Shown: one piece after another, positions 26,205 to 44,960 of the stretch
How positions within the stretch are numbered: the stretch's first letter is position 1
Layout of the letters: each line of letters starts with the position of its first letter
Assembly (NCBI GenBank): GCA_015058945.1
Contig: SVBF01000007.1
Span: 66,230-130,229, forward strand
Source: Erysipelotrichaceae bacterium
Lineage (GTDB): Bacteria > Bacillota_I > Bacilli_A > RFN20 > CAG-826
Direction of reading: 5' to 3'
Length of the DNA: 64,000 nucleotides
Made by a program: the position numbers and the translations under genes
Notes under the pieces: generated by a model
Told to the model about the DNA's origin: nothing
Databases searched by the model: none
The model's input: only the letters and a program-made list of their open reading frames with translations

Positions 26205-26708
26205 TTAGATGTTGTACCTACCGATCGCTTCGTCGAGGCGGGCGTTCAGGCCTCTGGTCCACTTGACCGCGTCACCGGTGGCGAAAGCGACATAAGCCTT
26301 CTTCGAGGTGTTGACGACGCCAGTCAAGACGCGGGAGAGGTATTCGCCGAGCTTGTCGGCCACGATCGCCTTGTTGACCGCGACGAGTTCATTGCCTTCG
26401 CCGTCCGAAGTGACGACGACAAAGGAATGGGTGCTCGTGCTCTCACCGGTGTAGGAGAAGGCGAGATTGGCGCCGATGTCGGCGGTTTGGGCGGCCTTCA
26501 CTTCGGTGGAGCCATAGGAGATCTTCACGTCGAGGGCTTCGGGGACGTCGAAATAGATTTTGCCCATGGCGACAAAGTCGATGTAGGTCGGTTGGGCGAT
26601 AGAGGATTCCGCTTGGGATGCTGGGGGAACGGAGCCGGATTGTTGTTCACCGCAAGAGGCGAGGAGCATGAGGCTCGCGATGGCGAATAAGGGAGTTTTA
26701 AGTTTCAT
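26205..26708 (-). CDS. Lipoprotein of unknown function
   Basis: Signal peptide with an LLASC lipobox. Confidence 0.65.
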   Translation of the reverse strand: MKLKTPLFAIASLMLLASCGEQQSGSVPPASQAESSIAQPTYIDFVAMGKIYFDVPEALDVKISYGSTEVKAAQTADIGANLAFSYTGESTSTHSFVVVTSDGEGNELVAVNKAIVADKLGEYLSRVLTGVVNTSKKAYVAFATGDAVKWTRGLNARLDEAIGRYNI

Positions 26709-26826: not shown

Positions 26827-28089
26827 TTATTTTGCGAAGGATACCGTGACTTTGGTGCCTTTGCCGACTTCGCTCTCGACCTTCATCTCGACCGACCCGA
26901 CCTGGCGCAGACGGTAACGGATGTTGTTGAGCCCGACGTGCTCGTTGGACTCGAAGTCGACTTTGTCCATGTCAAAGCCAACGCCATCGTCGATGACCTC
27001 GACGACATAACGGTCGCTTTCTTCATAAGAACGTAACGTCAGCGTCCCGCCCTCGACTTTCTTCAATATGCCGTGACGGACGGCGTTTTCCACTAAGGGC
27101 TGCACGCTAAGGGGCGGGACGTAGAAATCGGTCGCGGCGATGTCATAGACGACGCTAAGCCGCTCGCCGAAGCGGATCTTTTCCAAGGAGAGGAAGGCGC
27201 GGATATGGCTTAGCTCGTTGTCAAAGGCGATCATCCGGTTCTCCGTGAGGGAGGAAAGGTTCGCCCGGAGATATTCGGTGAAGTCGTCCAAAGCCGCCTG
27301 GGCTTTCTCGGGATCGATGGTGATCAAGGTCGAGATGGAGGAGAGGGAATTGTAGATGAAGTGTGGCTGAATCTGCGAAAGCATGACCCGGATTTGGGCG
27401 TCGCGCACCTTCTCCTCCTCACTCGCGAGGAGGATGTTGCGTTCCAAGTTGAGGAAAAAGAAGAGCACCTCGGTCGCCACGATGATGGAGAGATAGGCGA
27501 TCGCGTATCCTGGAAAGGCATCCTGGAAGGCGATGGCCACCACCGGCAAAAGACAATAGACCGCGAAGGCGATCTTCTCCCGGAGCTTCACCTTCTTGGA
27601 GAAGAGCGCATAGAAGAAGATGACCGCGAGCATCACGAACTGGTAACCCTGGGAGATTGGGAGCAACGGCAAACGGACATATTTTCCGCCTTGGGCCTCG
27701 AAGAACATCGGCACGAAGAGGTTCAGCACGTCGAGGAAGACGAACACCGCGAGCAAAGAGACGTTGAGGATGGCGAAGATCTTCGCCGTCTTCTTTTCCG
27801 GTTCCACATAACGGAGCATGTAGATGAAGAGGAAGAAAACCTCGAGGTTGTTCGCGATGTAAAAACCGGTATAGAAACCGCGGATCAACGCGTCGCTAGG
27901 CACATTGGCGCGCAAAAAGACGAAAGTGAAATAAGCGGCGAAATGGATGGCGGTGAAGGCGAGGAAGGCCAGCAAGGCGTTCTCGTCCTTACGCCGCTTT
28001 TTCTTCGTGGCGAGGTAGGCGATATGGACCAAAAAGATGACGATGCCGATCAGGCAGACGGTCGCGTTGAACATCGCGTTGTTTTCCAT
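26827..28089 (-). CDS. Sensor histidine kinase, LytS/YehU-type (polytopic N-terminus + His_kinase + HATPase)
   Basis: QIQPHFIYNSLSSISTL H-box and a C-terminal GHKL domain. It is the last gene of the peptide-export operon. Confidence 0.8.
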   Translation of the reverse strand: MENNAMFNATVCLIGIVIFLVHIAYLATKKKRRKDENALLAFLAFTAIHFAAYFTFVFLRANVPSDALIRGFYTGFYIANNLEVFFLFIYMLRYVEPEKKTAKIFAILNVSLLAVFVFLDVLNLFVPMFFEAQGGKYVRLPLLPISQGYQFVMLAVIFFYALFSKKVKLREKIAFAVYCLLPVVAIAFQDAFPGYAIAYLSIIVATEVLFFFLNLERNILLASEEEKVRDAQIRVMLSQIQPHFIYNSLSSISTLITIDPEKAQAALDDFTEYLRANLSSLTENRMIAFDNELSHIRAFLSLEKIRFGERLSVVYDIAATDFYVPPLSVQPLVENAVRHGILKKVEGGTLTLRSYEESDRYVVEVIDDGVGFDMDKVDFESNEHVGLNNIRYRLRQVGSVEMKVESEVGKGTKVTVSFAK

Positions 28090-28099
28090 ATCCCTTCCA

Positions 28100-28142
28100 T
28101 TTTACAACAAAGAAAAGGCCGCCGTGGCAATAACCGCGGCGG
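28100..28142 (-). terminator. Hairpin/terminator-like element between the rSAM and HK genes
   Basis: CCGCCGCGGTTATTGCCACGGCGG followed by CCTTTTCTTTGTT in the minus sense. It may attenuate rather than terminate. Confidence 0.35.
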
Positions 28143-28160
28143 AACCTTGCAAACGGGGAA

Positions 28161-29558
28161 TCAATCGATGTCGAGCGGGTTCTCGACGCGCCACTCCCCC
28201 ATCTTCGCGAGGACTTTCTCATACCACCCGTTCTCGAAGAAGAGGCATTTGGTGACGTCTTCGTGGAAATAATCTTGGTTTGGCGAATAGAGCAAGCCTA
28301 GTCCCGGGCAACCGCCGTTGCAGGCTTTGTAATAACGGCAGTTGCCGCATTTGTCGTTCTTCACGATTTGCTTTAACAAAGGCGCCGTCGCGAGGTTCAC
28401 GTAATCGCTATGTTTCAATAGTTCGCTTAACGGGGTCTTCAGGCAATTGCCCAAACTGATGCCCTTCTCGAGGAAATAGCCGGACATCTGAAGGCAAGGC
28501 ACCACTTCGCCGCTGCTCGAGACCGCGATCATGCCACGGGTCCCCTTGCACATGGGGATGCGAATGTTGAAGTCTTTCTTGTTGCAGGCGATCGGCACGA
28601 GTTCGTAGCTCTTTTGATTTGGATGCAGGCGCATGTATTGCCAAATGTCGATCTTCATCTTCAACCCGCTTTGGGCGTAAGCGGAGGCAAACTCGAGCAT
28701 GCGGTCGTAATATTCCTCGATCGATAGGCTCGACTGAGGCGAGTTCTTCTCCCACCGCGGCGCTTCGGTCGTGCGGATGATGCGCATCTCGTTGACGCCC
28801 ATCTGCTCGAGCAAAGCCGCCGTCTTCATCATGACGTCAACGTTTTTGCGGTTGACCTGGACCTGCGCCTTCACGCGGAAACCGTTATCTAAGCAGAGCT
28901 TTATGGCTTTGAGGGTCAATTCCTCGGCCTTGGGATGCTGACGGATCCAATTGTGGTAGCAGACGCCGTCATAGGAGATCTTGATCAAGGGACGGCAGCC
29001 GAGTTCCTTGAACACGTCGAGCATCTTTTGGTTCAAAAGCAGGCCGTTGGTGTTGAGCTCGAAGATCATCATGTCGCGTTCGTAGATGGCGCGGACGATG
29101 TCGAGGAAGCGCTTATGGACGAGGGGCTCCCCACCGGTCAATGTGAAGGCGTTGACGCCGACGTCTTTCGCCTGGTCCAAGATCGAAAGGATCTGCTCGA
29201 AACTTAGCTCCGAGTTCAGCGGCGCGTTGTCCTTCGCGTTAAAGCAATGGAGACAATTGAGGTTGCATTTGCCCGTCACCATGAGGTTCATGCGCGGGAA
29301 ATAAAGGTTGTCGTATTCCTTGAAACGGGACCATTCGCTCGGCTTTTGCCCCTTCTCACATTCCTCGATGAGGCCTTGGCGGAGCAAGTCCTCGAGGACG
29401 GGGCTAGGCTTTAAATCGGTCACGCCATCGCAACGAAGCAGGCATTCCATTTCCTCCGCGGAGACGCCAAAGGCGCAGTCCATCCCCTTACGGTAGACCG
29501 CGCGGTCGAGAAAGAGCCATTTCCTTAAGGCGATGTGGTCCTTCAGTCGGTAAAACAT
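28161..29558 (-). CDS. Radical SAM enzyme with C-terminal SPASM domain (peptide-maturase type)
   Basis: CNLNCLHC radical-SAM cluster motif near residue 98 and a C-terminal Cys-rich CGNCRYYKACNGGCPG. The first ~90 residues could be an RRE-like domain. Confidence 0.8.
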   Translation of the reverse strand: MFYRLKDHIALRKWLFLDRAVYRKGMDCAFGVSAEEMECLLRCDGVTDLKPSPVLEDLLRQGLIEECEKGQKPSEWSRFKEYDNLYFPRMNLMVTGKCNLNCLHCFNAKDNAPLNSELSFEQILSILDQAKDVGVNAFTLTGGEPLVHKRFLDIVRAIYERDMMIFELNTNGLLLNQKMLDVFKELGCRPLIKISYDGVCYHNWIRQHPKAEELTLKAIKLCLDNGFRVKAQVQVNRKNVDVMMKTAALLEQMGVNEMRIIRTTEAPRWEKNSPQSSLSIEEYYDRMLEFASAYAQSGLKMKIDIWQYMRLHPNQKSYELVPIACNKKDFNIRIPMCKGTRGMIAVSSSGEVVPCLQMSGYFLEKGISLGNCLKTPLSELLKHSDYVNLATAPLLKQIVKNDKCGNCRYYKACNGGCPGLGLLYSPNQDYFHEDVTKCLFFENGWYEKVLAKMGEWRVENPLDID

Positions 29559-29587
29559 AATGGTCGGTCCACCTTAAAACGAAGAAT

Positions 29588-30343
29588 CTATTGCCCGTCG
29601 AAGAACGCCCAATCGTATTGGGTCATGTATTCGCCGCGATACTGACGGATCGCGTCTTTGTTGCCCTTCTTGTATTCATAGGCGTCGCATTCCACCTTGG
29701 TCACGTCGATGAAGCATTCGGTGTAGCGCTTGACGAAGACGCCTTCCGCCCCCGCTTTGTTGAGAGTGTTTTGGATGTCGGCGATGAGGTTCCTCAAATA
29801 GGAGGGATGGTCCTCTTCCCATAAGACGGCGTTAAGTTCGTTGATGTGGATCGCCGAGCCCTCGCGGTCGACGAGGTAGGCAAAAGCCTCTTTCGATTTC
29901 TTGTAGGAGAAGCGCAAAGGTTCGCCGTCCCAGAAGGCCTCGAAATTGCCGAAGCACTTGATGCGCAGCTTCCGTTGCTTCGAGGAAATGGGATAACGGA
30001 GGTGGCTTAGTTCCTCCATGATCTTGGCCTTGCTCACCGGTTTGGTGACATAACCCGAGGCATGGATTTTATGGGCCTCGAGGGCGTATTGGTCATAGGC
30101 GGTGACGAAGATGACGTTGATCTCTGGGTTAACGAACTGCAGCCTTTTGGCGAGCTGGACGCCGTTAGTGCCAGGCATCTCGATGTCGAGGAATGCGAGG
30201 TCGAAAATCTGCTCCTTCGTGGCATCCATCGCTTCCTTGGAATTTGAAAAAGAGTGCGTTTTTGCGTCCGGAATGGCCTCTTTTACGGCTTTTTCGAGAC
30301 GTAGGAGCTGCAAGGGCTCGTCATCGACCAACATGATGTTCAT
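29588..30343 (-). CDS. Response regulator, REC domain + SARP/OmpR-type winged-helix with truncated BTAD
   Basis: N-terminal MLVDDEP...DLAFLDIEMPG receiver, then a C-terminal RIKCFGNFEAFWDGEPLRFSYKKSKEAFAYLV segment and WAFF. Confidence 0.75.
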   Translation of the reverse strand: MNIMLVDDEPLQLLRLEKAVKEAIPDAKTHSFSNSKEAMDATKEQIFDLAFLDIEMPGTNGVQLAKRLQFVNPEINVIFVTAYDQYALEAHKIHASGYVTKPVSKAKIMEELSHLRYPISSKQRKLRIKCFGNFEAFWDGEPLRFSYKKSKEAFAYLVDREGSAIHINELNAVLWEEDHPSYLRNLIADIQNTLNKAGAEGVFVKRYTECFIDVTKVECDAYEYKKGNKDAIRQYRGEYMTQYDWAFFDGQ

Positions 30344-30372
30344 CTTCTTCCCTCCGTCCGAATTTTCAGGGT

Positions 30373-32262
30373 TTAAAAACGCTTCTTGAGCACGAGCATG
30401 TTCTTGCCGTTGATGCGATCATAGGCGCATTCGGTCATGATGCTCTTGACGATATGGATGCCAAGTCCACCGACGTGGGCGAGGCTTTGCTCGGTGCCGA
30501 CGTCAGGGTTATCGACGTCGAGCTGATTGAACGGCTTGCCGTGGTCGATGACCGTGAGGACGAATTCGTTCTCGTCTTCGTTGAAGAGGAGGCGGAGGAA
30601 GACGTCGCCCGTCCCATCGGAGTCGGCATAACCATAGTTGATGATGTTGGACACGAGTTCGTCGCCGACGATGACGAGTTTGTTTTTGAAGTCGTCGGGG
30701 AAATGGTGTTCCTCGCCGAAGCCGCTAATCATGCCGAGGATCTGCGGGACGCTCTCCTTCGCCGCGGCGAAGCTCTGCTCCTTATAGGAATAGGAGCCGC
30801 CGCGGTATTTGAGGGTCAGATAAGTGATGTCGTCGCTTTGGGGCGCCCCAGCCACGAAGGCGTTGACGTCGTCTTTGATGGAACGGTGGAGTTCGACGAC
30901 GCTGCCATAGGGGCGGCGGTTCATCGTCTCAAGGAAGCGCTTCTCGCCATAGAAATCTCCGGCCCCGTTACGCGCCTCGGTGACGCCATCGGTATAAAGG
31001 GTGATGCTTTCGCCGGGCTTAAGGACGATGGTCTCGTCGCGGACGAAGACATCCTTGAAGCAGCCTAAGAGAAAACCGGAGTTGCAGGTGAGGTAATGAA
31101 AATCCTGGCTTAGGCCCACGATCGGGGGGTTATGGCCCGCATTAGCGAACTGCAACGTCCCATCGCGCTTATTGAGGATGGCGAGGAAGGCCGTGACGAA
31201 CATGCTGGATTTGTTGCCCTTGAAGATGGACGCGTTGATATCAGCGAGGATCTGCGAAGGGGTCTTGCCCGAAGTCGCCGCGTCGCGGAAGGAGGTGATG
31301 GTCTTCATCATGAACATGGCCGCGGGCACGCCTTTGCCGGAGACGTCGCCGATGAGGATCGCGACATGGTCGTCGTCGATATCGACATAGTCATAGAGGT
31401 CGCCGCCGACTTCCTTGGCCGCGCGTAGCTCCGCCACGATCTCGACGTCCTTGGAGGAGATGGTCTCGGAGGGCAACGTGTTCATCTGGATGTCCTTCGC
31501 GACCTCGAGTTCGGTCTTGCTCTTCTGGTATTCGCCGTTGACGCTGATCTCGCTCTCCATCAAGTCGTTCGTACGACGGTTGAGGAAGTACATCGAGAGG
31601 AAGAGCAACGTGACGAAAAGCGCCCTGCCGAGGTAATAGTTCGCGAAAATGTTGATGAAGCGGTTCTCCCCCACTTTCCCGAGGTCGACCAGATATTGCC
31701 ATCTGCCTTGGGCGGTATCGGGGTAGGCGTCGGGGAGGAGGCGGTTATAGATGAGCTGGGATTCCTTGTCAAGCTGACCGGAGAAGAGGTTCGCGTCGAA
31801 TTCGCCATAGAAAACGCCAAGGCCAAGGGCGATGAGCATCTCGATAAGGACCGCGATGAAGATCGACCGGCACACCTTGGGACTGTAATAATGGGCCGTT
31901 AACGCAATGCAAACCGCCCATCCGAGCACGGCGTGCTTGGGCATGATGACGTTCAAGACGCCGATCGCGAGGACGAAGAGGCCAAGCAGGAAGTATTTGT
32001 ACTTCGGATGCGCCAGGAATTTGGACTTTATCCAAAACATCGGCGAAACCAAGAAGAAGATGGTGATCGGAATGACGATAATCGTCATCCGGTAGGTGCT
32101 CTCGCCGACGGTGAAGAGCTTGAAGAGGTATCCGAAATAGACGAGGAAAAGCAAAATCGCGGTGAAAAGCGCCGCGAAGGACATGTGCCAGTTCGCGCTG
32201 CGCTCGTTTACGAGATATGCTTCGCGGCTCTCTTGTTCCGCCTTCATTGCTTCATTCCCCAA
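30373..32262 (-). CDS. Membrane-bound PP2C (SpoIIE-like) phosphatase fused to an RsbW/SpoIIAB-like GHKL serine-kinase domain
   Basis: About 8 TM helices, then PP2C motifs GDVSGKGVPAAMFMM and TDGVTEA, then a C-terminal ELVSNIINYG...DHGKPF...GGLGIHIV (N, G1, G2 boxes). Confidence 0.75.
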   Translation of the reverse strand: MGNEAMKAEQESREAYLVNERSANWHMSFAALFTAILLFLVYFGYLFKLFTVGESTYRMTIIVIPITIFFLVSPMFWIKSKFLAHPKYKYFLLGLFVLAIGVLNVIMPKHAVLGWAVCIALTAHYYSPKVCRSIFIAVLIEMLIALGLGVFYGEFDANLFSGQLDKESQLIYNRLLPDAYPDTAQGRWQYLVDLGKVGENRFINIFANYYLGRALFVTLLFLSMYFLNRRTNDLMESEISVNGEYQKSKTELEVAKDIQMNTLPSETISSKDVEIVAELRAAKEVGGDLYDYVDIDDDHVAILIGDVSGKGVPAAMFMMKTITSFRDAATSGKTPSQILADINASIFKGNKSSMFVTAFLAILNKRDGTLQFANAGHNPPIVGLSQDFHYLTCNSGFLLGCFKDVFVRDETIVLKPGESITLYTDGVTEARNGAGDFYGEKRFLETMNRRPYGSVVELHRSIKDDVNAFVAGAPQSDDITYLTLKYRGGSYSYKEQSFAAAKESVPQILGMISGFGEEHHFPDDFKNKLVIVGDELVSNIINYGYADSDGTGDVFLRLLFNEDENEFVLTVIDHGKPFNQLDVDNPDVGTEQSLAHVGGLGIHIVKSIMTECAYDRINGKNMLVLKKRF

Positions 32263-32268
32263 CGATTA

Positions 32269-32562
32269 TTAGAGCTTCTCGATTTTCATCAGGTTCTGGA
32301 AGCCGACCATCTCGAAGATGTCGTAGACCCCAGAGGGGACGCGGACGAGGCGGGTATCGTCGTAACGCTGCTTGAGGCGCACGATGATGCGAAGTCCGGC
32401 GGAGGAGATGTAACGGAGCTCCGCCATGTCGACGACGATGGAGCTCGGCTCGGTCGATTTGAGGATCTCCTCGACCTCCTTCTCCACCTCCTCGGAGTTG
32501 AAAGAGTTGAGTTCGCCCTCCAAATAGAGGGTCAACACTTTGTTTTCGATGGTATGTTTCAT
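32269..32562 (-). CDS. STAS-domain anti-sigma-factor antagonist-like protein
   Basis: 97 aa with the LRYISSAGLRIIV STAS core and a conserved Ser. Confidence 0.75.
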   Translation of the reverse strand: MKHTIENKVLTLYLEGELNSFNSEEVEKEVEEILKSTEPSSIVVDMAELRYISSAGLRIIVRLKQRYDDTRLVRVPSGVYDIFEMVGFQNLMKIEKL

Positions 32563-32573
32563 ATAAGGCCTCC

Positions 32574-34748
32574 TTATTTTGTGTCTAGCCTTTGCCGTTC
32601 GACGAGTTCGGCGAACCGGCCTTTTTTCGCTAATAGCGATTCATAGTCCCCGCTTTCGACCACGCGCCCGTCCTCGAGCATCAGGATGCGGTCGGCATGC
32701 TGGATGGTCGAGAGGCGATGGGCGATCACGATGCGGGTGCAGTTGAGCTTGTCGATCGCTTCGGAGATGCTCCGCTGCGTCTTGTTGTCGAGGGCGCTCG
32801 TGGCCTCGTCGAAGATGAGGATCTTCGGACGATGGACGATGGCCCGGGCGATCATGATGCGCTGCTTTTGCCCGCCCGAGATGCCGCCTTGGCCCTCGGA
32901 GATGACCGTCTTCATCTTCATCGGCATCGCGCGGATGTCGTTGGCGATGTCGGCGATTTCCGCCGCCTCCCACGCGTCTTTCTCGGTGAGGTTCGGGGCG
33001 GAGATGATGATGTTGGACAAGATGTCCGCATGGAAGAGGTTGCCCCCTTGCATGACGGTACCGATCTTGCGCCGCAACGAAGGCAAGTCGATGTCGTCCA
33101 TCGGAATGTCGTCGTAGAGGATGGTGCCAGAAGTCGGTTTCTCGAAGCCGAGAAGCAAACGCACGAAGGTCGATTTGCCGCACCCCGTCCTACCGACGAT
33201 GGCGACGTATTCGCCTTCGCGAATGTCTAACGACAGGTGGTCCAAAACATCCGGTCCGCCTTCATTATACTGGAAAGAAACATTGTCGAAACGGATATTT
33301 CCGTTCACGTGTTCCATGACGATTTTGCCTTGGATATTCTCGCTTTCGGCGGAGAGGATCGGTCGCGCGAGCTCAAATAACGGGGGCACCGTGAAGGAGA
33401 CCTCCACGATGCGGCCCACCGAGACGAAGGCGGCGGAGAGGATGCCATAGCTCGTCACGAAGGCCATGTAGTCGTCGACGGCGACGTTATATCTCGCGGC
33501 GAGGAAATAGATCGCCACGTTGCCGAGCAAAGTGATGAGCAAGGTGATCGCCGGGGCCAAGCGGATGATCAGCGGTGGGCTATAACGTGCCCTCGCGGCA
33601 CGATAATACACGCTCGCCCATTTGGCGAAGACGCGCTTCTCCGAGCCGGAGAGGCGGATCTTTTGGATGCCGTTGATCATCTCGTAGGTCACGCCGGACT
33701 CTTTGGAGGAGAGCTCGAGTTGTTTGGTCATGTGCCCCTTTCGCACGACGGAGACGATGACGGTGAACAAGGTCGAGGCGACCAGAATCAAAACGACGGG
33801 CAGGATCAACACGGGGGCAAAGCCCGCGAGCTGGAAGAGGTAGACCAAGGACATCACCGAGGAGATCAAGGCCGCGAAGATGCCGTTGACGATGGTGTTC
33901 GCAAGCAGTGGCACCGCGTTGAAGCGGGCGGTCATCTCGCCGGTGTTGTATTTCTTGAAGAAAGAGGGCGGTAGCGAAAACACGCGCATCATCGTCGCCT
34001 CCTGGATCGCCTTCTCGCGACGGATGGCGATATGCGAATTGACGAAGGTCTGCACCGCCTTGAGGAGCAATAAGCCGGTCGCGGTCGCGACGACGTAGAT
34101 CGAGATCGCGACGTATTGGACGATGTTTTTGTCCTGCACCACTTCGCCGGTCAAGATCTTGGTGAGGTAAGGCAAAAGCGCCCCGACCCCCACCACCGAT
34201 GCGGAGAGCACGCCATAGACGACCGTCTCCCAAAGGCGGATCGATTTGCGGATGTAACGGATGTATTCCTTTAACGACACCTTTTGGGTCGGCAGGGCGC
34301 GGTAGAAGCTATAGGCCTCCGCCTCGAGCTTATCGAAGATGCTTTCGGCGAGGCGCGTCTTCTTGCCCGTCTTGAAGTTGACGTAATAATAGCCCTTCTC
34401 GCCGCGAGGCAAGAGGACGACCGGGTTATGGCCCTCCTTGGTGAAGACGAGCAAAGGCGAAAGGTCGCCTTCTTTGATCGAGTCCTTGAGTTCGACCTTA
34501 TGGTATTGGATCTCATAGGGACGGAGAGCGTAATTGAACTTCTCCATCAGGGTGACGATGGAAGAGGGGATGTCGCCGAGCTGATGATGGTAGAAGGAAA
34601 GGACTTGGGCGACGGCTTGGTTCTCGCGCAGCGCTTTCTCGTCGAGCTGCCCGGAGGTATCCATTCCGGCGAGCGAACGGAAAGAATCCTCGAACGTCGC
34701 TTCGTCGAGTTTTCTGCGTTTGGCGATTTGTTCTTCGAACCAGCCCAT
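32574..34748 (-). CDS. NHLM-type bacteriocin-system ABC transporter, ATP-binding/permease subunit with non-peptidase N-terminal domain
   Basis: The N-terminal ~170 aa lack a catalytic Cys, then 6 TM, then an ABC ATPase (GRTGCGKST, LSGGQKQR, ILIFDEATS). Confidence 0.75.
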   Translation of the reverse strand: MGWFEEQIAKRRKLDEATFEDSFRSLAGMDTSGQLDEKALRENQAVAQVLSFYHHQLGDIPSSIVTLMEKFNYALRPYEIQYHKVELKDSIKEGDLSPLLVFTKEGHNPVVLLPRGEKGYYYVNFKTGKKTRLAESIFDKLEAEAYSFYRALPTQKVSLKEYIRYIRKSIRLWETVVYGVLSASVVGVGALLPYLTKILTGEVVQDKNIVQYVAISIYVVATATGLLLLKAVQTFVNSHIAIRREKAIQEATMMRVFSLPPSFFKKYNTGEMTARFNAVPLLANTIVNGIFAALISSVMSLVYLFQLAGFAPVLILPVVLILVASTLFTVIVSVVRKGHMTKQLELSSKESGVTYEMINGIQKIRLSGSEKRVFAKWASVYYRAARARYSPPLIIRLAPAITLLITLLGNVAIYFLAARYNVAVDDYMAFVTSYGILSAAFVSVGRIVEVSFTVPPLFELARPILSAESENIQGKIVMEHVNGNIRFDNVSFQYNEGGPDVLDHLSLDIREGEYVAIVGRTGCGKSTFVRLLLGFEKPTSGTILYDDIPMDDIDLPSLRRKIGTVMQGGNLFHADILSNIIISAPNLTEKDAWEAAEIADIANDIRAMPMKMKTVISEGQGGISGGQKQRIMIARAIVHRPKILIFDEATSALDNKTQRSISEAIDKLNCTRIVIAHRLSTIQHADRILMLEDGRVVESGDYESLLAKKGRFAELVERQRLDTK

Positions 34749-34761
34749 CCGTTCCTCCTTC

Positions 34762-36930
34762 CTACTCGTTGGTCACGAGCTCATAATACGGTCCTTTGGC
34801 CGCCATGAGCTCCTCGTGGGTCCCCTGCTCCGCGATCTCGCCGCCCTCGAGCATGACGATCAAATCCGCGTCGCGGATGGTCGAGAGACGGTGGGCGATG
34901 ACGATGGTCGTGATGCCCCTGGCCTTGACGGCGCGGACGACGTCGTATTCCGTCTTCGCGTCGAGGGCGCTCGTGGCTTCGTCGAGGATGATGATGCTCG
35001 GGTCGGCCGCGAGGGAACGGGCGATCTCCAAACGCTGTTTCTCGCCGCCGGAGAAGTTGCGCCCGCCTTCGAGCACCGCCGCGTTATACCCGCCTTCGCG
35101 CTGCATGATCTGGCGATGAATCTGGGCGTCGTTGCAGGCCATGATGATCTCGTAGTCCTCAATGGACTCATCCCACATGCGGATGTTGTTCGCGACCGTG
35201 TCCTCATAGAGGGTGATGTCCTGATCGACGACGGCGATGGAAGAGGTGAAGATCTCGTGGTCGATCTCCTCGATTCGCTTGCCATCAAAGATGATTTCGC
35301 CAGACCACGGCGAATAAAGGCCAGAGATCAGTTTGGAGAGCGTCGACTTGCCGCTGCCGGTCGAGCCGACGATCGCCACCTTTTGACCCTGCTTGATCTC
35401 GAGGTTGAAGTGGCGCAACACGGGTTCGTCCAAGGGCGAGTAGCCGAAGGTGACGTCGCGCAGGACGAGGTTGCCCTTGACCTTGGCGACGTTATCCATG
35501 GCCACCGAACGGGTGACGTTGGCGTCGAGGGGGTATTCGATGACGTCGTCGACGCGCTCCATCTGGGTGCGCATCTCCTGCAGGGTCTGACCGCTGTTGA
35601 TTAAGGTCATGGCCGGGGACATGAATAAACTCAAAATCGCCTGGAAGGACAAAATGGAACCGACGGTGAACTGGCCCTTGATGACGTAATAGATGCCGAG
35701 GACCAACACCGAATAGTTCGCGATAAGCGTGAGGAAGGCGGGCAAGATGCCGAGGGTTTGGTTCACCCGCGACATGCGGATCTTGCCTTTGGTGACGTTT
35801 TCCTCGACCTCCGCCCAGGTGTCGTAATAGGCCGCCTCGGCGCCGTTGCTCTTGATGGTCTCGATCATCTCGATGCCTTTGGAGGTCATGGCGGAAAGCT
35901 TGGCGGCATCGCGGGATTGGACGCGGGAGATGTTGACCCTGATCTTGGAGATGCGGTTGGAGATGAAGCCGTTGAGGACAATCGTCACCACGCCAAGAAG
36001 GGCGAGCGTCGCGCTTTTTTGGATCATGATGGTCAGGTAGACGACGATCATGATGGCGTTGAAGAAAAGCGGCGCGAAGACGTTCACGAGCGTTTCGGCG
36101 ATCGAGGCGTTCTCGCTTTGGCGCGACTGCAGATCGCCAACCATTCTCTGGGAGAAGAAATTGATGGGGAGGCGGAGGATGCGCCACATGTAGGATGTCG
36201 AGCCGATGAGGTCGAGTTTGCCGCTGATCTTATACGAATAGAGGGCCTGCACCCCCGTCACGACGACCTGCAGCAACCCGATGAGCCCGAACAAGGTCAA
36301 AAAGGGATAGAGCCAATCCGGGTTACGCCCGGCGAGCAGATAGTCGACGAAAACCTGCTCCATCGCCGGGGAGATGATGGTGAAGAGGTAGACGACGACC
36401 GAGGTGATGGAAAAGAACGCCATCAGAGGCACCGCGCCTTTGAGGCGGCGCTTAGCAAAGCCGATGATGGACTTCTTCTTGCCGCCGGGGACGAATTCCT
36501 CGGTGGGGACGATCTCCAAATAGACGCCGGTGAAGTACTCGTCGAAGGTCGCGACGTCGAGTTTCATCTGCCCACGCGCGGGGTCGTTGATGTACACCTT
36601 GTTGCCGCGGAAGCCGGAGACGACGACGAAATGGCCGCCGTTCCAGTGGACGATCGCGGGGAACTTGCCCCGCTGCTTGAGCTTCAACGCGTTAAGGGCG
36701 TAGCCTTTCGTGGCGAAGCCGTACTTACGGGCCGCTTGGAGGATGTTCTTCGCGCTCGAGCCGTTACGGGAGACGCCGCAATCGACGCGTAGTTGCTCTA
36801 ACGGCACCCATTTGCCGTAATAGGCCATGACCATGGCCAAAGAAGCCGCGCCGCATTCGAGGGCCTCGAGCTGCATGATGATGGGGACGTTGGCGACCCC
36901 TTTGGTTTTGGGCGTCTTGACCTTTCTCAT
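34762..36930 (-). CDS. ABC transporter with N-terminal C39 double-glycine peptidase domain (peptidase/permease/ATPase)
   Basis: QLEALECGAASLAMVMAYYG and HFVVV C39 motifs with TM and ABC domains. ATG at 36930 forms an ATGA overlap with the upstream gene stop; the track ORF start 36984 lies inside the upstream ORF. Confidence 0.8.
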   Translation of the reverse strand: MRKVKTPKTKGVANVPIIMQLEALECGAASLAMVMAYYGKWVPLEQLRVDCGVSRNGSSAKNILQAARKYGFATKGYALNALKLKQRGKFPAIVHWNGGHFVVVSGFRGNKVYINDPARGQMKLDVATFDEYFTGVYLEIVPTEEFVPGGKKKSIIGFAKRRLKGAVPLMAFFSITSVVVYLFTIISPAMEQVFVDYLLAGRNPDWLYPFLTLFGLIGLLQVVVTGVQALYSYKISGKLDLIGSTSYMWRILRLPINFFSQRMVGDLQSRQSENASIAETLVNVFAPLFFNAIMIVVYLTIMIQKSATLALLGVVTIVLNGFISNRISKIRVNISRVQSRDAAKLSAMTSKGIEMIETIKSNGAEAAYYDTWAEVEENVTKGKIRMSRVNQTLGILPAFLTLIANYSVLVLGIYYVIKGQFTVGSILSFQAILSLFMSPAMTLINSGQTLQEMRTQMERVDDVIEYPLDANVTRSVAMDNVAKVKGNLVLRDVTFGYSPLDEPVLRHFNLEIKQGQKVAIVGSTGSGKSTLSKLISGLYSPWSGEIIFDGKRIEEIDHEIFTSSIAVVDQDITLYEDTVANNIRMWDESIEDYEIIMACNDAQIHRQIMQREGGYNAAVLEGGRNFSGGEKQRLEIARSLAADPSIIILDEATSALDAKTEYDVVRAVKARGITTIVIAHRLSTIRDADLIVMLEGGEIAEQGTHEELMAAKGPYYELVTNE

Positions 36931-37319
36931 TGCGCGTTTCCGAACAGGAATTCGATCGGTCGGACCTCGCGATAGATGACGCAAAAGGGGTATTCGCCGT
37001 CCGCGACGTCAAACACCGACGCCATCACGCTTGACCCTTCGACGAAAGTGATCGAGCCTTCCTTGCCTGAGATGATGACCTTTTGCCCCACCGCGATCTT
37101 GGGACGGTCGTCCACTTGGACCAGTAACGTCGCCTCCCCATCGAGGACCTCGGCCGTGCCGAATGCCCGAAGCGGGAGGATGGTGAGCGTCGACCAGAGG
37201 AAAAGAGAAAGCAGCGAAACCGCCACCGAGGCCAGAATGACCCAGGTGACCGGCGAGGTGCGCTGGAGGTGACGGTTGAGCTCCTCCGGGCTCGAAATGT
37301 TCGCTTCGCTCTTCTTCAT
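36927..37319 (-). CDS. Mini HlyD-like secretion/membrane-fusion protein (N-terminal TM + beta domain)
   Basis: 130 aa; TM helix then VQVDDRPKIAVGQKVIIS...GSITFVEG, resembling an HlyD C-terminal barrel. It is the first gene of the operon. Confidence 0.45.
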   Translation of the reverse strand: MKKSEANISSPEELNRHLQRTSPVTWVILASVAVSLLSLFLWSTLTILPLRAFGTAEVLDGEATLLVQVDDRPKIAVGQKVIISGKEGSITFVEGSSVMASVFDVADGEYPFCVIYREVRPIEFLFGNAQ

Positions 37320-37366
37320 GGGGGCAAAAAGGAAAAGGTTTTCGTTTGATTATAGTGTACGCACGA

Positions 37367-37410
37367 GCGCAAAAAAAGCGCGAACACGCGTGTTTTCGCG
37401 TCGCGCTTTG
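37367..37410 (-). terminator. Rho-independent terminator of the deoxyribosyltransferase gene
   Basis: GCGCGA...TCGCGC stem followed by T7 in the minus sense. A TATAAT-like element for the downstream operon follows at about 37345-37355. Confidence 0.55.
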
Positions 37411-37495
37411 CTTGGGGTTATTTGGATAAGCCGGAGGCGAAGAGAGTGCCGGAAGGGCCGACCGCGACCGGCGGGGTAAGCGGCTTTATCTCGAT

Positions 37496-37969
37496 TTAGA
37501 GTTCGTGGTGGTCCAAATATTCCGTCAACGCGGCGATGGCCTGCTCGCCGTTGCTGCCCACGAAAAGCGCGTTGAGGCAGCCACTTATCATGGGATTATA
37601 GGTAAGCTTCATCGTCTCCACACGGGAATCGGTGCGGAAACCATAGCAAGGTTTGCCGATCGCATAAGCCATGCCGAGTTCGACGCAGGTCCCATCGTCG
37701 GGCACGCGTCCGTCGAGGATGGCGAAGAAAATGTCCGCCTTCTGCACTTCGTTCCAATCCCTGGCGAAGATCTTCTTGACGAGGTCCGCTTCGTTTAGCC
37801 CGGTGAGTTCGGCGGCTAGATAGCCGTCCCTCTGAGGAAGAAAAACCTTGTAGCCATATTCTTCGAGGATATGGACGATCTTGAGGTTGTATTCGAGTTC
37901 GGCCGCGCTGAACAAGGGAGCGGCGAAATAGATGCTCTTTGCGCTTTTCTTCATATGCTTGTCTCCCAT
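37496..37969 (-). CDS. Nucleoside 2-deoxyribosyltransferase family protein
   Basis: IYFAAPLFS...E N-terminal signature and a conserved C-terminal region. Confidence 0.65.
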   Translation of the reverse strand: MGDKHMKKSAKSIYFAAPLFSAAELEYNLKIVHILEEYGYKVFLPQRDGYLAAELTGLNEADLVKKIFARDWNEVQKADIFFAILDGRVPDDGTCVELGMAYAIGKPCYGFRTDSRVETMKLTYNPMISGCLNALFVGSNGEQAIAALTEYLDHHEL

Positions 37970-38027
37970 CGCCGTATTCGCTTTGCCACATTATACCCTA
38001 CGCTCATGCCAAATAAGGATTGTTCCT

Positions 38028-38061
38028 AAAGGGAAAACAAAACCGCCATAAAGGACGGTTT
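38028..38061 (-). terminator. Weak terminator after the precursor peptide gene
   Basis: AAACCGTCCTTTATGGCGGTTT hairpin + TGTTTTCCC in the minus sense. Confidence 0.4.
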
Positions 38062-38077
38062 GTGGGTCGACCTCGGA

Positions 38078-38299
38078 TCAGGAGTCGATTTTGCGCTGCC
38101 CCAACGGCGTATCCTTGGGTTGGTCTTTGTCGTCGTCGCCGCCGCATCCGCCGCCGGAGACCGCGTCGAGCTGCTCGTCGCTAAGTTCTACGCCCTCGTC
38201 CTTGGCAAGCTGGAGGAGGTCGAAGGTGTTGTCGCATTCGGCGACCTTCTCGATCTGGTCCGCGGTGAGGCCTTTGAGCAATTCCTGTTTGACGTTCAT
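38078..38299 (-). CDS. Nif11-type leader peptide precursor with double-glycine cleavage site and 23-aa acidic single-Cys core
   Basis: MNVKQELLKGLTADQIEKVAECDNTFDLLQLAKDEGVELSDEQLDAVSGG | GCGGDDDKDQPKDTPLGQRKIDS. A GGAGGAA RBS lies 7 nt upstream. The track ORF extends upstream of the real start. Confidence 0.75.
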   Translation of the reverse strand: MNVKQELLKGLTADQIEKVAECDNTFDLLQLAKDEGVELSDEQLDAVSGGGCGGDDDKDQPKDTPLGQRKIDS

Positions 38300-38447
38300 G
38301 GTGTTTCCTCCTTCGTCTTGCCCATATCTTAGAAGGGCGTTTGTCACAGACTTGCCACACATTGGAAAAACTTTGGAAGTCCCGCCCAACATCGATACAT
38401 ATCCCGGGCGTATTATTGGACTTTACATTTGTATAGCCCTTATCCTT

Positions 38448-41042: not shown

Positions 41043-42482
41043 TCATTCCTTGCCTTGATATTTGAGGCTTAGCAGGGTGATATCGTCGCTTTGGGGCGCC
41101 TCGAGGACGAAGGAGGCGATGTCCGCCTTCACCGTGGCGTGGAGGTGTTCCATGGAGTCGAACTGTTTGCCGGTGAGGCAGGAGAGGAAGCGCTTCTCGC
41201 CATAGAAGTCCCCCGACGCGTTACGCGCCTCAGTAACGCCGTCGGTATAGAGGGTGAGGCTCTCGCCCGGCTTAAGGACGATCTCCTCATCGGTCACGAT
41301 CGCGTTATCGAAGCAGCCAAGGAGCAAACCCGAGGAGCATTTGAGGTAATCGTATTTGCCCCCTTGCCCAAGGATCGGGGGATTATGGCCCGCATTAGCG
41401 AACTTCAAGGTCCCGTCGCGCTTATCGAGGATCGCGAGGAAAGCCGTCACGAACATCGCGGCCTTATTGCCTTTGACGATGGAGGAATTGATGTCCTTAA
41501 GGATCTGCGAAGGGGTCTTGCCCGCGGTCGCGAAATCGCGGAAGGAGGTGATGGTCTTCATCATGAACATCGCGGCCGGGATCCCCTTGCCGGAGACGTC
41601 GCCGATGAGGACCGCGACGTGGTCTTTGTCGATATCGACGTAGTCGTAGAGGTCGCCGCCGACTTCCTTCGCGGCGTTAAGCTCGCCGATGATCTCCACC
41701 CCATCGGAGAGGACCGCCTTGGTGGGCAAGGTGTTGATCTGGATGTCCCTGGCGACGTTAAGCTCGGTCTTGGCCTTCTCTTGCTCGTCGTGAACCTTGA
41801 TCTCGTCGTCGAGGAGGCGATAGGTGCGCTGATTGAGGATGTTGGACACCATGAAGAACAGCGTCACGATGGCCGCGCGGGGGAAGAAATAGAAAATCAG
41901 CACTTTGACGTAACGGTTATCCCCGTGGGCGATGCGGTCCTGAAGCAACGCCACGCGCTCCTCCAAGGTCTCGACCGTGCCGATCGTGCCATCGGATAAG
42001 ATCACTCCGCCGCCAAAGAGGTTCTCGTCGAACTCGCCGAAGAACATGCCGAGGTAGATGCAGCAAAGCATCGAGAGGATGCTCACCGCGTAGACGACCC
42101 TGCCGATCGTGGGGTTGTAATAATGGTTCGCGATCAAAATGACGAACGGCCAGAAGAGCAGGCTATGCTTCGGCAAGAAGACGTTGAGGGCGAAGATGAC
42201 CGCCATCAAGGAAAAGAGGATGAAATATTTGTACCCCGGCCTGCGGATCATGTCGGTCTTTAAGAAGAAAAGCGGCAGGAACATCAACACGGCCACGATC
42301 GGGAAGAGGATGTTCACCATCACGAAGAACTGCTCGGGGATGACGAAGACGCGGACGACGTAAAGGAGCCAAATGACCAGGGACAAAATGCCGGCCGCGC
42401 CATTGACGTAGCTCATGTACTTGTTCGCGTCGGCCTCGTGGTTGTAATAGGCCTGCTGGTATTCCTGTTTCCTTTTCGGCAT
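41043..42482 (-). CDS. Membrane-bound PP2C (SpoIIE-like) phosphatase, paralog of 30373..32262 without the kinase domain
   Basis: GDVSGKGIPAAMFMMKTITSFRDFATAGKTPSQIL... is nearly identical in its motifs to the fused paralog. Confidence 0.75.
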   Translation of the reverse strand: MPKRKQEYQQAYYNHEADANKYMSYVNGAAGILSLVIWLLYVVRVFVIPEQFFVMVNILFPIVAVLMFLPLFFLKTDMIRRPGYKYFILFSLMAVIFALNVFLPKHSLLFWPFVILIANHYYNPTIGRVVYAVSILSMLCCIYLGMFFGEFDENLFGGGVILSDGTIGTVETLEERVALLQDRIAHGDNRYVKVLIFYFFPRAAIVTLFFMVSNILNQRTYRLLDDEIKVHDEQEKAKTELNVARDIQINTLPTKAVLSDGVEIIGELNAAKEVGGDLYDYVDIDKDHVAVLIGDVSGKGIPAAMFMMKTITSFRDFATAGKTPSQILKDINSSIVKGNKAAMFVTAFLAILDKRDGTLKFANAGHNPPILGQGGKYDYLKCSSGLLLGCFDNAIVTDEEIVLKPGESLTLYTDGVTEARNASGDFYGEKRFLSCLTGKQFDSMEHLHATVKADIASFVLEAPQSDDITLLSLKYQGKE

Positions 42483-42564: not shown

Positions 42565-43665
42565 TCAGTCGATTTGAGGCTCAGGTTCCGGCTCTTCCTC
42601 GACGGAGTCGTTCTTGAAGTTGGCCGCGTATTCCTCATCGTATACGTCGATGGGCTGACCGTTCTCGTCGTACTCCTGGACGAGGTCCTGGGCGACGCTA
42701 TTCTGGAACTGTTCGTTGCCTACGGGCGGATGCTGCTCGTCATAGTCCTCGATCCCGGCCTCGCGCTCGGCGCGGCGTTCCCTGTTGCCGTTCATGATGG
42801 TCTCGTAGACCTGTTCGCCCTTACGCTGCTGCTGGCTGGTTAACAGGAGGTTATAGCTGAAGGCGGCGCGTTCTTTCCTCGTGCCGCTGAGGCGGTTGAT
42901 GTCTTCTTGGCTCGGCAGGCCATCCTCCGGATCCCAACTAGGGAAGACGTGGCGGAGGTATTCGGTCGCGGCCTTGTCCAAGGCGTCCAAGTCGCCATGG
43001 AGGACGTGGTTTGGTTTATTGAAGGCCTCATAGACCTGCCTGAGGTTCGCGTAGGCCGTGGAATACTTGCCAAACATCCCGGCGACGAGGCCCGGCTTGG
43101 TGTTCTCGAAGGCTTTGTCGAGCTGCGCCTTACCGCGGTAATTCGCTTTGAGGCGGGCCATGAAGTCGCGCCCGGTGGCGTCGACTTCATAGGCGTCGAT
43201 ACGTTGGGACATGGATCCGTCGAAATCGCCGGAGAGGACGGCGGACATGACCTGAAGGTCATTGAGACGTTTCTGCCCTTCCGGGGAATTGTCGTTTCCT
43301 CCCGCCTCGATCTGGATGAGGCGCGTGGTTTCGCCTTGGAGGTATTGCACCGGCTCGAGCATGAACTGACGGTATGGCGCGTCTTCTTCGTCACTGAGGT
43401 TCGGGTCGACGGATTCGTTAGGAATGACGATGCTCTTCTTTCGCCTTAAGGTGAGGGATGCGTCGGCGATTTTCATCTTCGCGATGTGGACGGCCTGCTC
43501 GAAGGGGACGTCACGGTTTTGCCCCGCCCCATAGGCGAGCAAGTAACGGGTGGTGAAGGCCATCTTGTCCTCGAGGTTCTCCAAGGAATCCATGCTGCTC
43601 ATGTAATCCGCCATGGAGATGTACTTCACTTTTCTGAGTATTTGTTCGCTTAGGATCTTCGGCAT
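42565..43665 (-). CDS. Hypothetical cytoplasmic protein, family A (acidic C-terminus)
   Basis: 366 aa, N-terminus MPKILSEQILRKVKYISMAD. It is paralogous to the next gene. Confidence 0.6.
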   Translation of the reverse strand: MPKILSEQILRKVKYISMADYMSSMDSLENLEDKMAFTTRYLLAYGAGQNRDVPFEQAVHIAKMKIADASLTLRRKKSIVIPNESVDPNLSDEEDAPYRQFMLEPVQYLQGETTRLIQIEAGGNDNSPEGQKRLNDLQVMSAVLSGDFDGSMSQRIDAYEVDATGRDFMARLKANYRGKAQLDKAFENTKPGLVAGMFGKYSTAYANLRQVYEAFNKPNHVLHGDLDALDKAATEYLRHVFPSWDPEDGLPSQEDINRLSGTRKERAAFSYNLLLTSQQQRKGEQVYETIMNGNRERRAEREAGIEDYDEQHPPVGNEQFQNSVAQDLVQEYDENGQPIDVYDEEYAANFKNDSVEEEPEPEPQID

Positions 43666-44890: not shown

Positions 44891-44960
44891 GGTTTTATCC
44901 TCCTTTTCCCTGAGGGACGCCCATATTATTCACCCCCGACTGTCACAACCGTGCCACAAA

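Follow-up and report, generated by a model that had tools for sequence, protein, structure and literature searches.

The locus described here lies in a window of 64,000 nucleotides taken from contig SVBF01000007.1 of the assembly GCA_015058945.1 (Erysipelotrichaceae bacterium), and all coordinates are positions within this window unless a related locus is named. It consists of a gene for a 73-residue Gly-Gly peptide precursor (38078..38299, minus strand) and of eight close-packed genes that run on the same strand from 37319 down to 26827. In the 5′ to 3′ direction, these encode a truncated HlyD-like accessory protein (mini-HlyD, 36927..37319), an ABC exporter with a C39 peptidase domain (ABC1, 34762..36930, 722 residues from the ATG at 36930), a second ABC exporter that has no peptidase domain (ABC2, 32574..34748), a single-domain STAS protein (32269..32562), a membrane PP2C of the SpoIIE type fused to an RsbW-like GHKL kinase (PP2C-GHKL, 30373..32247, 624 residues), a response regulator (RR, 29588..30343) composed of a receiver domain and a SARP/OmpR-like winged helix, a radical-SAM/SPASM enzyme (rSAM, 28161..29558), and a sensor histidine kinase (HK, 26827..28089), all on the minus strand. 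When the open reading frames were re-read, the eight genes and the precursor were found where an earlier annotation of this DNA, referred to below as the original prediction, had placed them, and its domain labels for the HK, rSAM/SPASM, PP2C-GHKL, and STAS proteins were all matched in searches with hidden Markov models (HMMs). The packing that it had claimed, with ATGA overlaps or gaps of 4–30 nt, holds for the mini-HlyD/ABC1 junction, which is an ATGA overlap, and for the successive gaps from ABC1 through rSAM (13, 11, 21, 29, and 29 nt), but not for the rSAM–HK gap, which is 71 nt.

The precursor gene has a strong Shine-Dalgarno sequence and is followed by its own terminator-like hairpin (predicted at 38040..38061, minus strand). 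Between it and the operon stands a gene for a nucleoside 2-deoxyribosyltransferase (37496..37954, minus strand), after which a further terminator-like site is predicted (37402–37383, minus strand). The hairpin and the Nuc_deoxyrib_tr domain match thus bear out the earlier description of a separately terminated precursor located upstream, past a deoxyribosyltransferase gene.

Relatives of the locus were found by scanning one genome per species with an alignment of rSAM homologues, which gave 80 loci (designated by L and a number) at 44–77% identity, and the window proteins were mapped onto them by tblastn and with HMMs built here. The loci come from metagenome-assembled genomes (MAGs) labelled Bacilli, Lachnospiraceae, Oscillospiraceae, and a few others, related loci being also labelled Erysipelotrichaceae; the window DNA itself is also present in rumen metagenome contigs of up to 585 kb, and contigs of this MAG are deposited under ENA ERZ27247026 and JGI 3300021279. 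Full flanks, that is, at least 6 kb upstream and at least 8 kb downstream, are available for 36 of the 80 loci, and among these ABC1/ABC2 are found in 32, mini-HlyD in 31, PP2C in 25, and STAS in 23. The linkage of a peptide maturation and export module to regulators, which the original prediction had proposed from this one genome, is thus genuine, as the comparison with loci of other species shows, and the co-occurrence of the genes elsewhere is clear. The deoxyribosyltransferase gene, on the other hand, has no tblastn match in any of the 80 loci and is for this reason probably an unrelated insertion.

The order of the genes differs between lineages. In the Bacilli-type loci it is [HK-RR], a gene for a conserved 397-residue protein, precursor, rSAM, mini-HlyD, ABC1, ABC2, STAS, a STAS domain fused to an APH-type kinase (in some loci), and the membrane PP2C-GHKL. 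The Lachnospiraceae type has rSAM, PP2C with a HAMP domain, STAS, a sigma factor, GHKL, mini-HlyD, ABC1, and ABC2, and the Oscillospirales type has STAS, PP2C, GHKL, mini-HlyD, ABC1, ABC2, sigma, precursors, and rSAM, or else rSAM, STAS, PP2C, and GHKL. The window represents a rearranged Bacilli-type locus, in which RR, rSAM, and HK are placed after the partner switch formed by the STAS and PP2C-GHKL genes. The co-occurrence outlasts this shuffling of gene order, which speaks for a functional coupling of the genes. The comparison points to a cluster that is conserved in many gut and rumen Firmicutes and whose probable role is the synthesis, modification, and export of a small Cys-containing peptide.

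The leader of the window precursor is Nif11-like, ends in ...LSDEQLDAVSGG, and carries V-4, L-7, and L-12 at its Gly-Gly site. The predicted core of 23 residues, GCGGDDDKDQPKDTPLGQRKIDS, has a single Cys at core position 2 and the C-terminal tail RKIDS; its grand average of hydropathy (GRAVY) is -1.73, it contains six acidic and four basic residues, and it shows no amphipathic or hydrophobic stretch. Searched alone, the window precursor gives no match to the Nif11 models (PF07862, TIGR03798) at E ≤ 1 and only sub-threshold matches to NHLP/CTB leaders. Among 30 aligned family members, PF07862 matches 22 (best 1.5e-5) and TIGR03798 matches 20 (best 4.2e-10), so that the Nif11 label of this Gly-Gly-leader precursor draws on the family and not on the window peptide by itself.

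By means of a leader-pattern scan, 117 distinct Gly-Gly peptides were collected from the 80 related loci. The first Cys falls at core position 1–3 in 96 of them, and the cores that have no such early Cys lie mostly behind a different, short leader; exactly one Cys is present in 32 of the 36 short cores. In Bacilli-type loci, the cores of the peptides encoded directly 5′ of the rSAM gene are hydrophilic and 13–23 residues long, and most of the Bacilli-type short cores end in [RK][RK][IFL][DE][SDN]. Since the Cys next to the cleavage site is the invariant feature of the precursors, it is the likely site of modification. In relatives, the same leader is also found in front of zinc-ribbon-like cores of 40–60 residues (CPxCG...CxxCG), often several per locus (L010 488–2109, L018 6564–7826, L060 1282–2769, L020, L025, and others), each gene having its own direct-repeat box of the kind described below. 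Judged by their Cys pattern, these precursors look like exported mini zinc-ribbon proteins.

The window rSAM enzyme reaches 73.9 bits with Radical_SAM and 31 bits with SPASM, scores that exceed the respective cutoffs. The CxxxCxxC motif of the radical-SAM core (C98-x3-C102-x2-C105) and the seven-Cys SPASM pattern (C337...G350-x4-C355, C404-x2-C407-x5-C413-x3-C417, C438) are invariant in 14 sequences. The N-terminal ~88 residues occupy the place of the peptide-recognition domain of maturases for peptides that are ribosomally synthesized and then post-translationally modified (RiPPs), and residues 1–88 are modelled with confidence as a small strand/helix domain, for which no RiPP recognition element model gives a direct match. 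The best structural match of the enzyme model is SkfB, a peptide maturase that forms thioethers, and SuiB, likewise a peptide maturase, aligns to the model over 437–451 columns, that is, over nearly the full length, the N-terminal domain included. The model is poor in the SPASM half (predicted local distance difference test, pLDDT, below 50) and supports the superfamily placement only, not the chemistry. No NCBIfam family is reached above cutoff by the window enzyme, which matches the PapB, StsB, and SCM-type maturase models weakly (PapB, 68 bits vs a cutoff of 340). More than 1,500 relatives are found at E ≤ 1e-10, and of the 120 listed none is named beyond "radical SAM protein". Our leading guess, from the sequence and the model, is that the enzyme joins the core Cys in a thioether cross-link. 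It can be mentioned here that in L056 a class II lanthipeptide synthetase (DUF4135 and LANC_like, 901 residues, 4725–7430) is encoded directly 5′ of the rSAM homologue, with STAS, PP2C, and GHKL genes coming after the latter; this locus is possibly a hybrid lanthipeptide/rSAM cluster under a partner switch.

Of the export proteins, ABC1 has a Peptidase_C39 domain, with the motifs ECGAAS and GGHFVV visible in the translation, and its best family by far is TIGR03796, matched over the full length with 836.1 bits vs a cutoff of 853.3. The best family of ABC2 is TIGR03797, also over the full length (622.1 bits vs a cutoff of 709.4). As ABC1 misses the TIGR03796 equivalog cutoff only narrowly, we call the exporter NHLM-like; the dual NHLM-type ABC exporters, one with a C39 peptidase, that had been predicted are thereby confirmed at the level of best family, though below the cutoffs. 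The mini-HlyD protein has 130 residues, compared to ~420 in a full-length HlyD adaptor, and consists of one transmembrane (TM) segment and a small C-terminal domain. In the window protein only positions 2–50 of the 421 of TIGR03794 are matched (22.8 bits vs a cutoff of 156), so that the HlyD name holds for its N-terminal ~50 residues only, but the same model matches 14 of 14 family members, all below cutoff, which lends it support for the family.

The HK belongs to the His_kinase (PF06580) and HATPase_c families and has at least six TM segments in its first 213 residues. The RR has a Response_reg domain, while its C-terminus gives no Pfam match in the window protein. When the output domains of the family are compared as a profile with the PDB, EmbR (E=5.6e-4) and AfsR (0.036) are matched over ~85 residues of winged helix, and two of eight family members match Trans_reg_C. 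No BTAD match is obtained, and a complete BTA domain would not fit into the last 45 residues. Of the assignment as a REC-SARP regulator, made in the original prediction, the receiver part is thus matched in the window protein itself, and the SARP part is a putative one that draws on the family profile.

Alignment of the regions 5′ of the precursor genes reveals a direct-repeat box, TGTGRCA-N4-TGTGRCA. In the window, the copy in front of the precursor gene (TGTGGCAAGTCTGTGACA, 38342..38359, minus strand) lies 10 nt 5′ of the hexamer TAAGAT (38331–38326). A second copy (TGTGACACCTTTGTGACG, 43706..43723, minus strand), 10 nt 5′ of TAGAAT, and a third (TGTGGCACGGTTGTGACA, 44941..44958, minus strand), 10 nt 5′ of AATAAT, precede two paralogous genes for proteins of 366 and 362 residues, respectively. 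These three sites, against 0.33 expected when up to two mismatches are allowed, are all on the gene strand (minus), and in each the second heptamer is followed, after exactly 10 nt, by a −10-like hexamer. Among the related loci, the 32 of the Bacilli type (523 kb) contain 57 boxes with at most one mismatch, compared to 0–1 in dinucleotide shuffles, and the other 48 (691 kb) contain two. Nearly all boxes in relatives stand 20–70 nt 5′ of a gene, and the genes so preceded are both kinds of precursor, the 397-residue protein, homologues of the 366-residue protein, and sometimes the STAS gene (directly, in L015) or, in L030 and L032, the mini-HlyD operon with PP2C-GHKL as its last gene, as well as genes whose products carry signal peptides and are class-3-lipase-like or contain Listeria-Bacteroides repeats. 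In two further genomes, reached via the 366-residue protein, the box is again found before its homologues.

The boxes known for SARP regulators are direct repeats in an 11-bp register that replace the −35 region, the 3′ repeat being 8 bp from the −10 element (PMC10936776). The window box has the same 11-bp register and a fixed position, but with 10 nt to the −10 hexamer. With the SARP activators AfsR, ActII-ORF4, DnrI, and EmbR (PMC10936776) the present system shares a winged-helix output domain, by its profile similarity to EmbR and AfsR, and such repeats, which overlap the −35 region and keep a constant, short spacing to the −10 hexamer; it differs in that the output domain is fused to a receiver domain, retains only a stub of the BTA domain, and occurs in Firmicutes, and in that the spacing is 10 nt and the heptamer is another one. 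No DNA-binding protein other than the REC-SARP regulator is conserved in these loci. At L068, where the RR is 41% identical and the architecture is the same, the heptamer is TGGTGCA, and the boxes stand divergently, ahead of the precursors and of the rSAM gene (9836–9947), and at L086 a YGTTGCR repeat precedes the precursor (15129–15163); the SARP-type regulators of these two variant-box loci are 34–41% identical to the window RR. On the grounds of the SARP-like geometry, of the co-occurrence, and of the co-variation with the divergence of the RR, we assign the box to this regulator, and the site at 38342–38359 is thus a candidate operator of the REC-SARP protein. In the canonical loci, the genes for rSAM, export, and the partner switch come directly after the box-driven precursor gene, a layout that, as predicted from the position of the box, is one of full positive feedback.

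The genes downstream of the second and third boxes are candidate members of the same regulon. The 366-residue protein (42565..43665, minus strand) belongs to a lineage-restricted family, with only 40 detectable homologues, none of them named and none having a Pfam domain. Its paralogue of 362 residues (43802..44890, minus strand) is 28% identical to it, and the two share the N-terminal pattern MPK[IL]..E...Y.SMADY and acidic C-terminal tails. The model of the 366-residue protein is confident (pLDDT 86) and all-alpha, and has no significant PDB match, the top ones being alpha-pore-forming toxins at E=0.24 and a TM-score of 0.13, which is not evidence of relationship. A kinase-less membrane PP2C paralogue of 479 residues (41043..42482, minus strand) begins 82 nt 3′ of the box-driven 366-residue gene, and no terminator is predicted between the two. 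If these genes are co-transcribed, the two-component system would feed the partner switch, which is a speculation at present. The conserved 397-residue protein (L028 8544–9737 and ~24 other Bacilli-type loci) is encoded between the RR and the precursor with a box of its own. Its gene is missing from the window, and the protein has no Pfam, NCBIfam, or PDB sequence match, by which an assignment as a HipA-like kinase is left unsupported. A correlation of this gene, being present with Ser/Thr-rich cores and absent with Asp-rich ones, was dropped because it is not clean across the loci.

Turning to the partner switch, PP2C-GHKL matches SpoIIE with 171 bits (model positions 1–191 of 192) and HATPase_c_2 with 69 bits (positions 1–127 of 127), and has at least four TM segments in its N-terminal ~240 residues, a region that matches no known domain. 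Among its best PDB matches is the phosphatase-kinase fusion Rv1364c of M. tuberculosis (3ke6, E=2.6e-13). The STAS protein scores 56 bits with the Pfam model and 62.6 bits with the anti-sigma-antagonist family TIGR00377 (cutoff 53.45). In its motif YISSAGLR (Y[IV]SSAGLR in the family) a Ser stands at the position that is phosphorylated in SpoIIAA and RsbV, and this position is kept in 47 of 47 members. The transmembrane domains of the HK and PP2C were also considered as a shared sensor domain, which was rejected (hhalign probability 0.5%).

The phosphatase and the kinase are fused in 18 Bacilli-type loci and in the window. The relatives of the Lachnospiraceae and Oscillospirales types, named according to the MAG records, have separate genes for PP2C, STAS, and the RsbW-like kinase, together with a gene for an extracytoplasmic function (ECF) sigma factor. 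L040, for example, encodes between rSAM and mini-HlyD a HAMP-PP2C, a STAS protein, a 168-residue ECF-type sigma factor (TIGR02937, 105 bits), and a 140-residue HATPase_c_2 protein. A sigma HMM built from the relatives, and run on the window and the related loci only, detects such a gene in 13 clostridial loci, but neither in the window nor in a single locus of the Bacilli type. The RR of the window type (58–71% identity) occurs in 17 loci, none of which carries a sigma gene, so that the two are mutually exclusive across the 80 loci. No convincing sigma-type promoter motif was seen by inspection 5′ of the precursors of the sigma-carrying relatives.

Because the same cluster in clostridial relatives holds separate PP2C, STAS, and kinase genes and an ECF sigma gene, the partner switch was ancestrally sigma-directed, and from this comparison of gene content the sigma-less fused PP2C-GHKL/STAS module is a derived form of the classical partner switch. 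This changes two points of the original prediction. Its statement that no sigma factor is found nearby stands for the window, but the arrangement is a derived state. Its proposal that the peptide signal is transduced through a Ser/Thr partner switch in the absence of a sigma factor is not supported, since the module is ancestrally sigma-directed and the only cis-regulatory evidence points to the REC-SARP regulator.

Two fusions involving such components were observed in relatives. A second STAS domain, in an unusual fusion to an APH/EcKL-type phosphotransferase (~384 residues), is encoded between the first STAS gene and PP2C-GHKL in L032 (16685–17839) and also in L008, L010, L012, L014, L015, L021, L030, and L031. 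In addition, a MatE efflux transporter fused to an RsbW-like HATPase_c_2 domain is encoded beside another STAS gene in L032 (6735–8510), L014, L015, and L030; a PP2C-GHKL gene of 715–721 residues comes next in L014 and L015 and was not mapped there in L030 and L032. From the MatE fusions it would seem that this lineage connects components of partner switches to transporters.

The above observations can be combined into a circuit. Through its Nif11-like leader, the 73-residue precursor would bind to the rSAM/SPASM enzyme at the N-terminal domain of the latter. The enzyme may then modify the core, most likely at the single Cys 1–3 residues past the Gly-Gly and perhaps by a thioether cross-link. 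By homology, ABC1, the peptidase-less ABC2, and the truncated HlyD would then cut after the Gly-Gly and export a very hydrophilic peptide of ~23 residues. The multi-TM HK would respond to this peptide outside the cell and phosphorylate the REC-SARP regulator, which would bind the tandem heptamers TGTGRCA-N4-TGTGRCA in place of the −35 region and activate the precursor gene and the two paralogous genes (366 and 362 residues). The membrane PP2C-kinase fusion and the STAS protein would constitute a phosphorylation-based partner switch, acting as a second input, for which the candidate outputs are a sigma factor encoded elsewhere, the exporter, and the two-component system.

What the genes encode, their linkage across species, the conservation of the Cys and of the C-terminal tail, and the box with its position and co-variation are observed directly. 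Of the two signalling systems, the two-component one seems to turn on the gene for the peptide along with a small number of others, and the presence of the box before the precursor gene together with a multi-TM kinase points to the exported peptide as a candidate ligand of the HK. To the resulting picture of an autoinduced, exported, rSAM-modified peptide circuit, whether quorum-sensing-like or bacteriocin-like, we give an even chance. A more specific combination of its parts is tentative, namely an undescribed peptide-signalling system in which a Nif11-leader pheromone would be modified at its N-terminal Cys by a new rSAM/SPASM clade and read out by a His_kinase/REC-SARP pair through TGTGRCA repeats, with a regulon including secreted lipases, surface proteins, and a new all-alpha family, and with a partner switch that would have lost its ECF sigma factor and gate the exporter or the two-component system.

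Several points weigh against this circuit. The RR and the HK are found in only 10 and 6, respectively, of the 36 full-flank loci, which makes the two-component system a lineage-specific addition rather than a part of the core, and several Bacilli-type loci carry boxes but no RR within the fetched flanks. The spacing between box and hexamer is 10 nt, compared to 8 bp in the SARP boxes of actinomycetes. No box was found at the promoter of the window operon (5′ of 37319), and in this genome, therefore, only the precursor would be under the proposed feedback. The TM domains of the HK and PP2C are not homologous and thus give no hint of a shared ligand. Furthermore, the long zinc-ribbon-like cores behind the same leader fit a family of exported effectors or bacteriocins equally well as a pheromone. 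Finally, the evidence is computational throughout; that the peptide is modified, cleaved, exported, and sensed and that the regulator binds the DNA are predictions.

The foremost alternative is that the product is an antimicrobial RiPP, a bacteriocin similar to the sactipeptides or ranthipeptides, the regulators providing autoinduction and protection of the producer, so that the peptide would be a weapon and not a signal. The combination of an rSAM/SPASM enzyme, a Gly-Gly leader, and a C39 ABC exporter is indeed a typical type of bacteriocin cluster, and many relatives have 2–8 diverse precursors per locus, including the Cys-rich zinc-ribbon-like ones, a diversification that is typical of bacteriocins. 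The LanM lanthipeptide synthetase that adjoins the rSAM gene in one relative (L056) and the secreted lipase-like and surface proteins of the regulon fit as well. However, no recognisable immunity gene is present in the operon, all eight genes being assigned to export, regulation, or maturation, and the sole core of the window, with 23 residues and a GRAVY of -1.73, lacks any amphipathic or hydrophobic stretch. The RK[IF][DE]S tail is, moreover, kept between species, as is more usual for a signal recognised by a receptor than for a diversifying toxin. We regard the bacteriocin as possible, but somewhat doubtful.

We have also considered that the partner switch gates transport post-translationally, the phosphorylation state of the STAS protein controlling the ABC exporter and the two-component system alone handling transcription, by analogy to the STAS protein MlaB, which binds the MlaF ATPase. 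Such a role would be consistent with the location of STAS and PP2C-GHKL directly after ABC2 in most Bacilli-type loci, where, as in the window, the sigma profile of the relatives detects no sigma gene, and with the MatE transporter fused to an RsbW-like kinase beside another STAS gene in the same genomes. The STAS protein even gives a weak match to the MlaB family (E=0.0012), but this similarity is far below threshold. In addition, the homologous module of the clostridial loci is a standard sigma-controlling set with the ECF sigma gene in the cluster, and a sigma factor for the Bacilli-type module could be encoded elsewhere in the genome. Transport gating is therefore unlikely in our estimate. 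An incidental adjacency, in which the exporter, a generic partner-switch module, and a two-component-plus-rSAM module would be neighbours without coupling, is very improbable, because the scrambled gene order of the window, the unrelated deoxyribosyltransferase gene inside the locus, and the abundance of PP2C/STAS modules (extra copies in L013–L015, L030, and L032) are outweighed by a co-occurrence that holds across three lineages, in different orders and down to 45% rSAM identity, and by the box promoters directly before STAS (L015) or before the mini-HlyD operons that end in PP2C-GHKL (L030, L032).

The autoinduced peptide circuit resembles several known systems in its parts. With the NHLP/Nif11 export system it shares two tandem ABC exporters, one of them with a C39 domain, a HlyD-type gene ahead of them (TIGR03796, TIGR03797, and TIGR03794 being the best matches), and, at the family level, a Gly-Gly leader of the Nif11 type (leader families TIGR03793 and TIGR03798). 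It differs in that all three export proteins score under the curated cutoffs and the HlyD protein is shortened to 130 residues, in that the leader is a shortened Nif11 form which the models do not match in the window copy, and in having as the modifying enzyme an rSAM/SPASM protein that reaches no NCBIfam family above cutoff. The RiPPs with rSAM-installed thioethers comprise the sactipeptides, such as the sporulation killing factor made with SkfB, and the ranthipeptides, such as freyrasin (PapB) and thermocellin (CteB). An N-terminal domain of the peptide-recognition type, the radical-SAM core, the SPASM domain, and Cys in the core are common to these systems and the present one, and SkfB is the best structural match. 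The similarity is, however, at the superfamily level (PapB, 68 bits vs a cutoff of 340), and the short cores carry a lone Cys immediately behind the cleavage site, no CX3D or repeated-Cys motif being recognisable in them.

The streptococcal Gly-Gly pheromone circuits ComC/ComAB/ComDE and BlpC/BlpAB/BlpRH, as well as the agr system, follow the same logic as the proposed circuit: a small precursor that is cut and exported by a C39 ABC transporter with an accessory protein, and a multi-TM HK with an RR acting on tandem direct repeats before the pheromone gene and on a small regulon. Unlike in those circuits, the peptide is probably modified by an enzyme, a partner switch is built into the cluster, the kinase belongs to the His_kinase family (PF06580) and not to HPK10, and the regulator is SARP-like and not LytTR. 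Partner-switching modules are known from RsbU/V/W with sigma B, SpoIIE/AA/AB with sigma F, SypE/SypA of Vibrio, and BtrU/V/W of Bordetella. The PP2C, the RsbW-like kinase, and the STAS protein with its phospho-Ser position are shared with these, and the phosphatase-kinase fusion has a solved precedent in Rv1364c of M. tuberculosis (3ke6). The present module is distinguished by its multi-TM anchor, by being embedded in a peptide maturation and export operon, and by the lack of a sigma gene in the Bacilli-type loci.

The surroundings of the cluster contain some further genes. Past the HK, a lipoprotein gene (26205..26708, minus strand; lipobox LLASC) is followed by a strong terminator (26187–26165, minus strand). 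As no terminator is predicted between the HK end of the operon and this site, the lipoprotein gene may be co-transcribed with the operon as its ninth gene, and homologues of the lipoprotein adjoin the HK in L013 and L026. Just past the end of the operon, on the plus strand, a gene for a GGDEF-domain protein (24530–25501; PF00990 in the identical gene of L001) has no obvious tie to the cluster. Between the precursor and the PP2C paralogue, a gene pair occupies 38507–40956 on the minus strand. One of the pair encodes a 422-residue DHO_dh-type protein with 4Fe-4S ferredoxin domains, according to the Pfam record of the identical L001 gene, and the other a Cys-rich protein of 394 residues that, read by eye, is similar to the glutamate synthase small chain; by the same reading, the pair resembles the dihydropyrimidine dehydrogenase PreA/PreT. 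Together with the deoxyribosyltransferase gene, the pair thus represents nucleotide-metabolism genes interspersed among signalling genes.

Each part of the system is of a known kind, and it is the conserved assembly for which we found no description. In the literature searched, outside which most subscription journals lie, this architecture does not appear, in agreement with the novelty that the original prediction had claimed for it. The assembly comprises an rSAM clade, precursors of the leader-Gly-Gly-x-Cys form, an NHLM-like exporter whose HlyD is truncated, a partner switch, and a regulon marked by the TGTGRCA box, the switch being accompanied by an ECF sigma factor in some lineages and by a two-component SARP regulator in others. 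For none of the proteins specific to the cluster is the cutoff of an NCBIfam family attained.

Most such Firmicutes of the rumen and gut have not been cultured, and little is known of how their cells communicate with each other. The present analysis provides concrete leads in this respect, namely a candidate signal peptide in which the single Cys and the C-terminal tail are conserved, an uncharacterised clade of rSAM maturases, and a promoter box with a predicted regulator and regulon. The interest lies chiefly in the triad of signal, regulator, and box and in the sigma-less partner switch. The cluster appears to record a natural replacement: where clostridial relatives have a switch controlling an ECF sigma factor, this lineage has a fused module that lacks the sigma gene and, next to it, a two-component system. 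If this fused module acts on the transporter or on the kinase, it would extend the known range of partner-switch targets.

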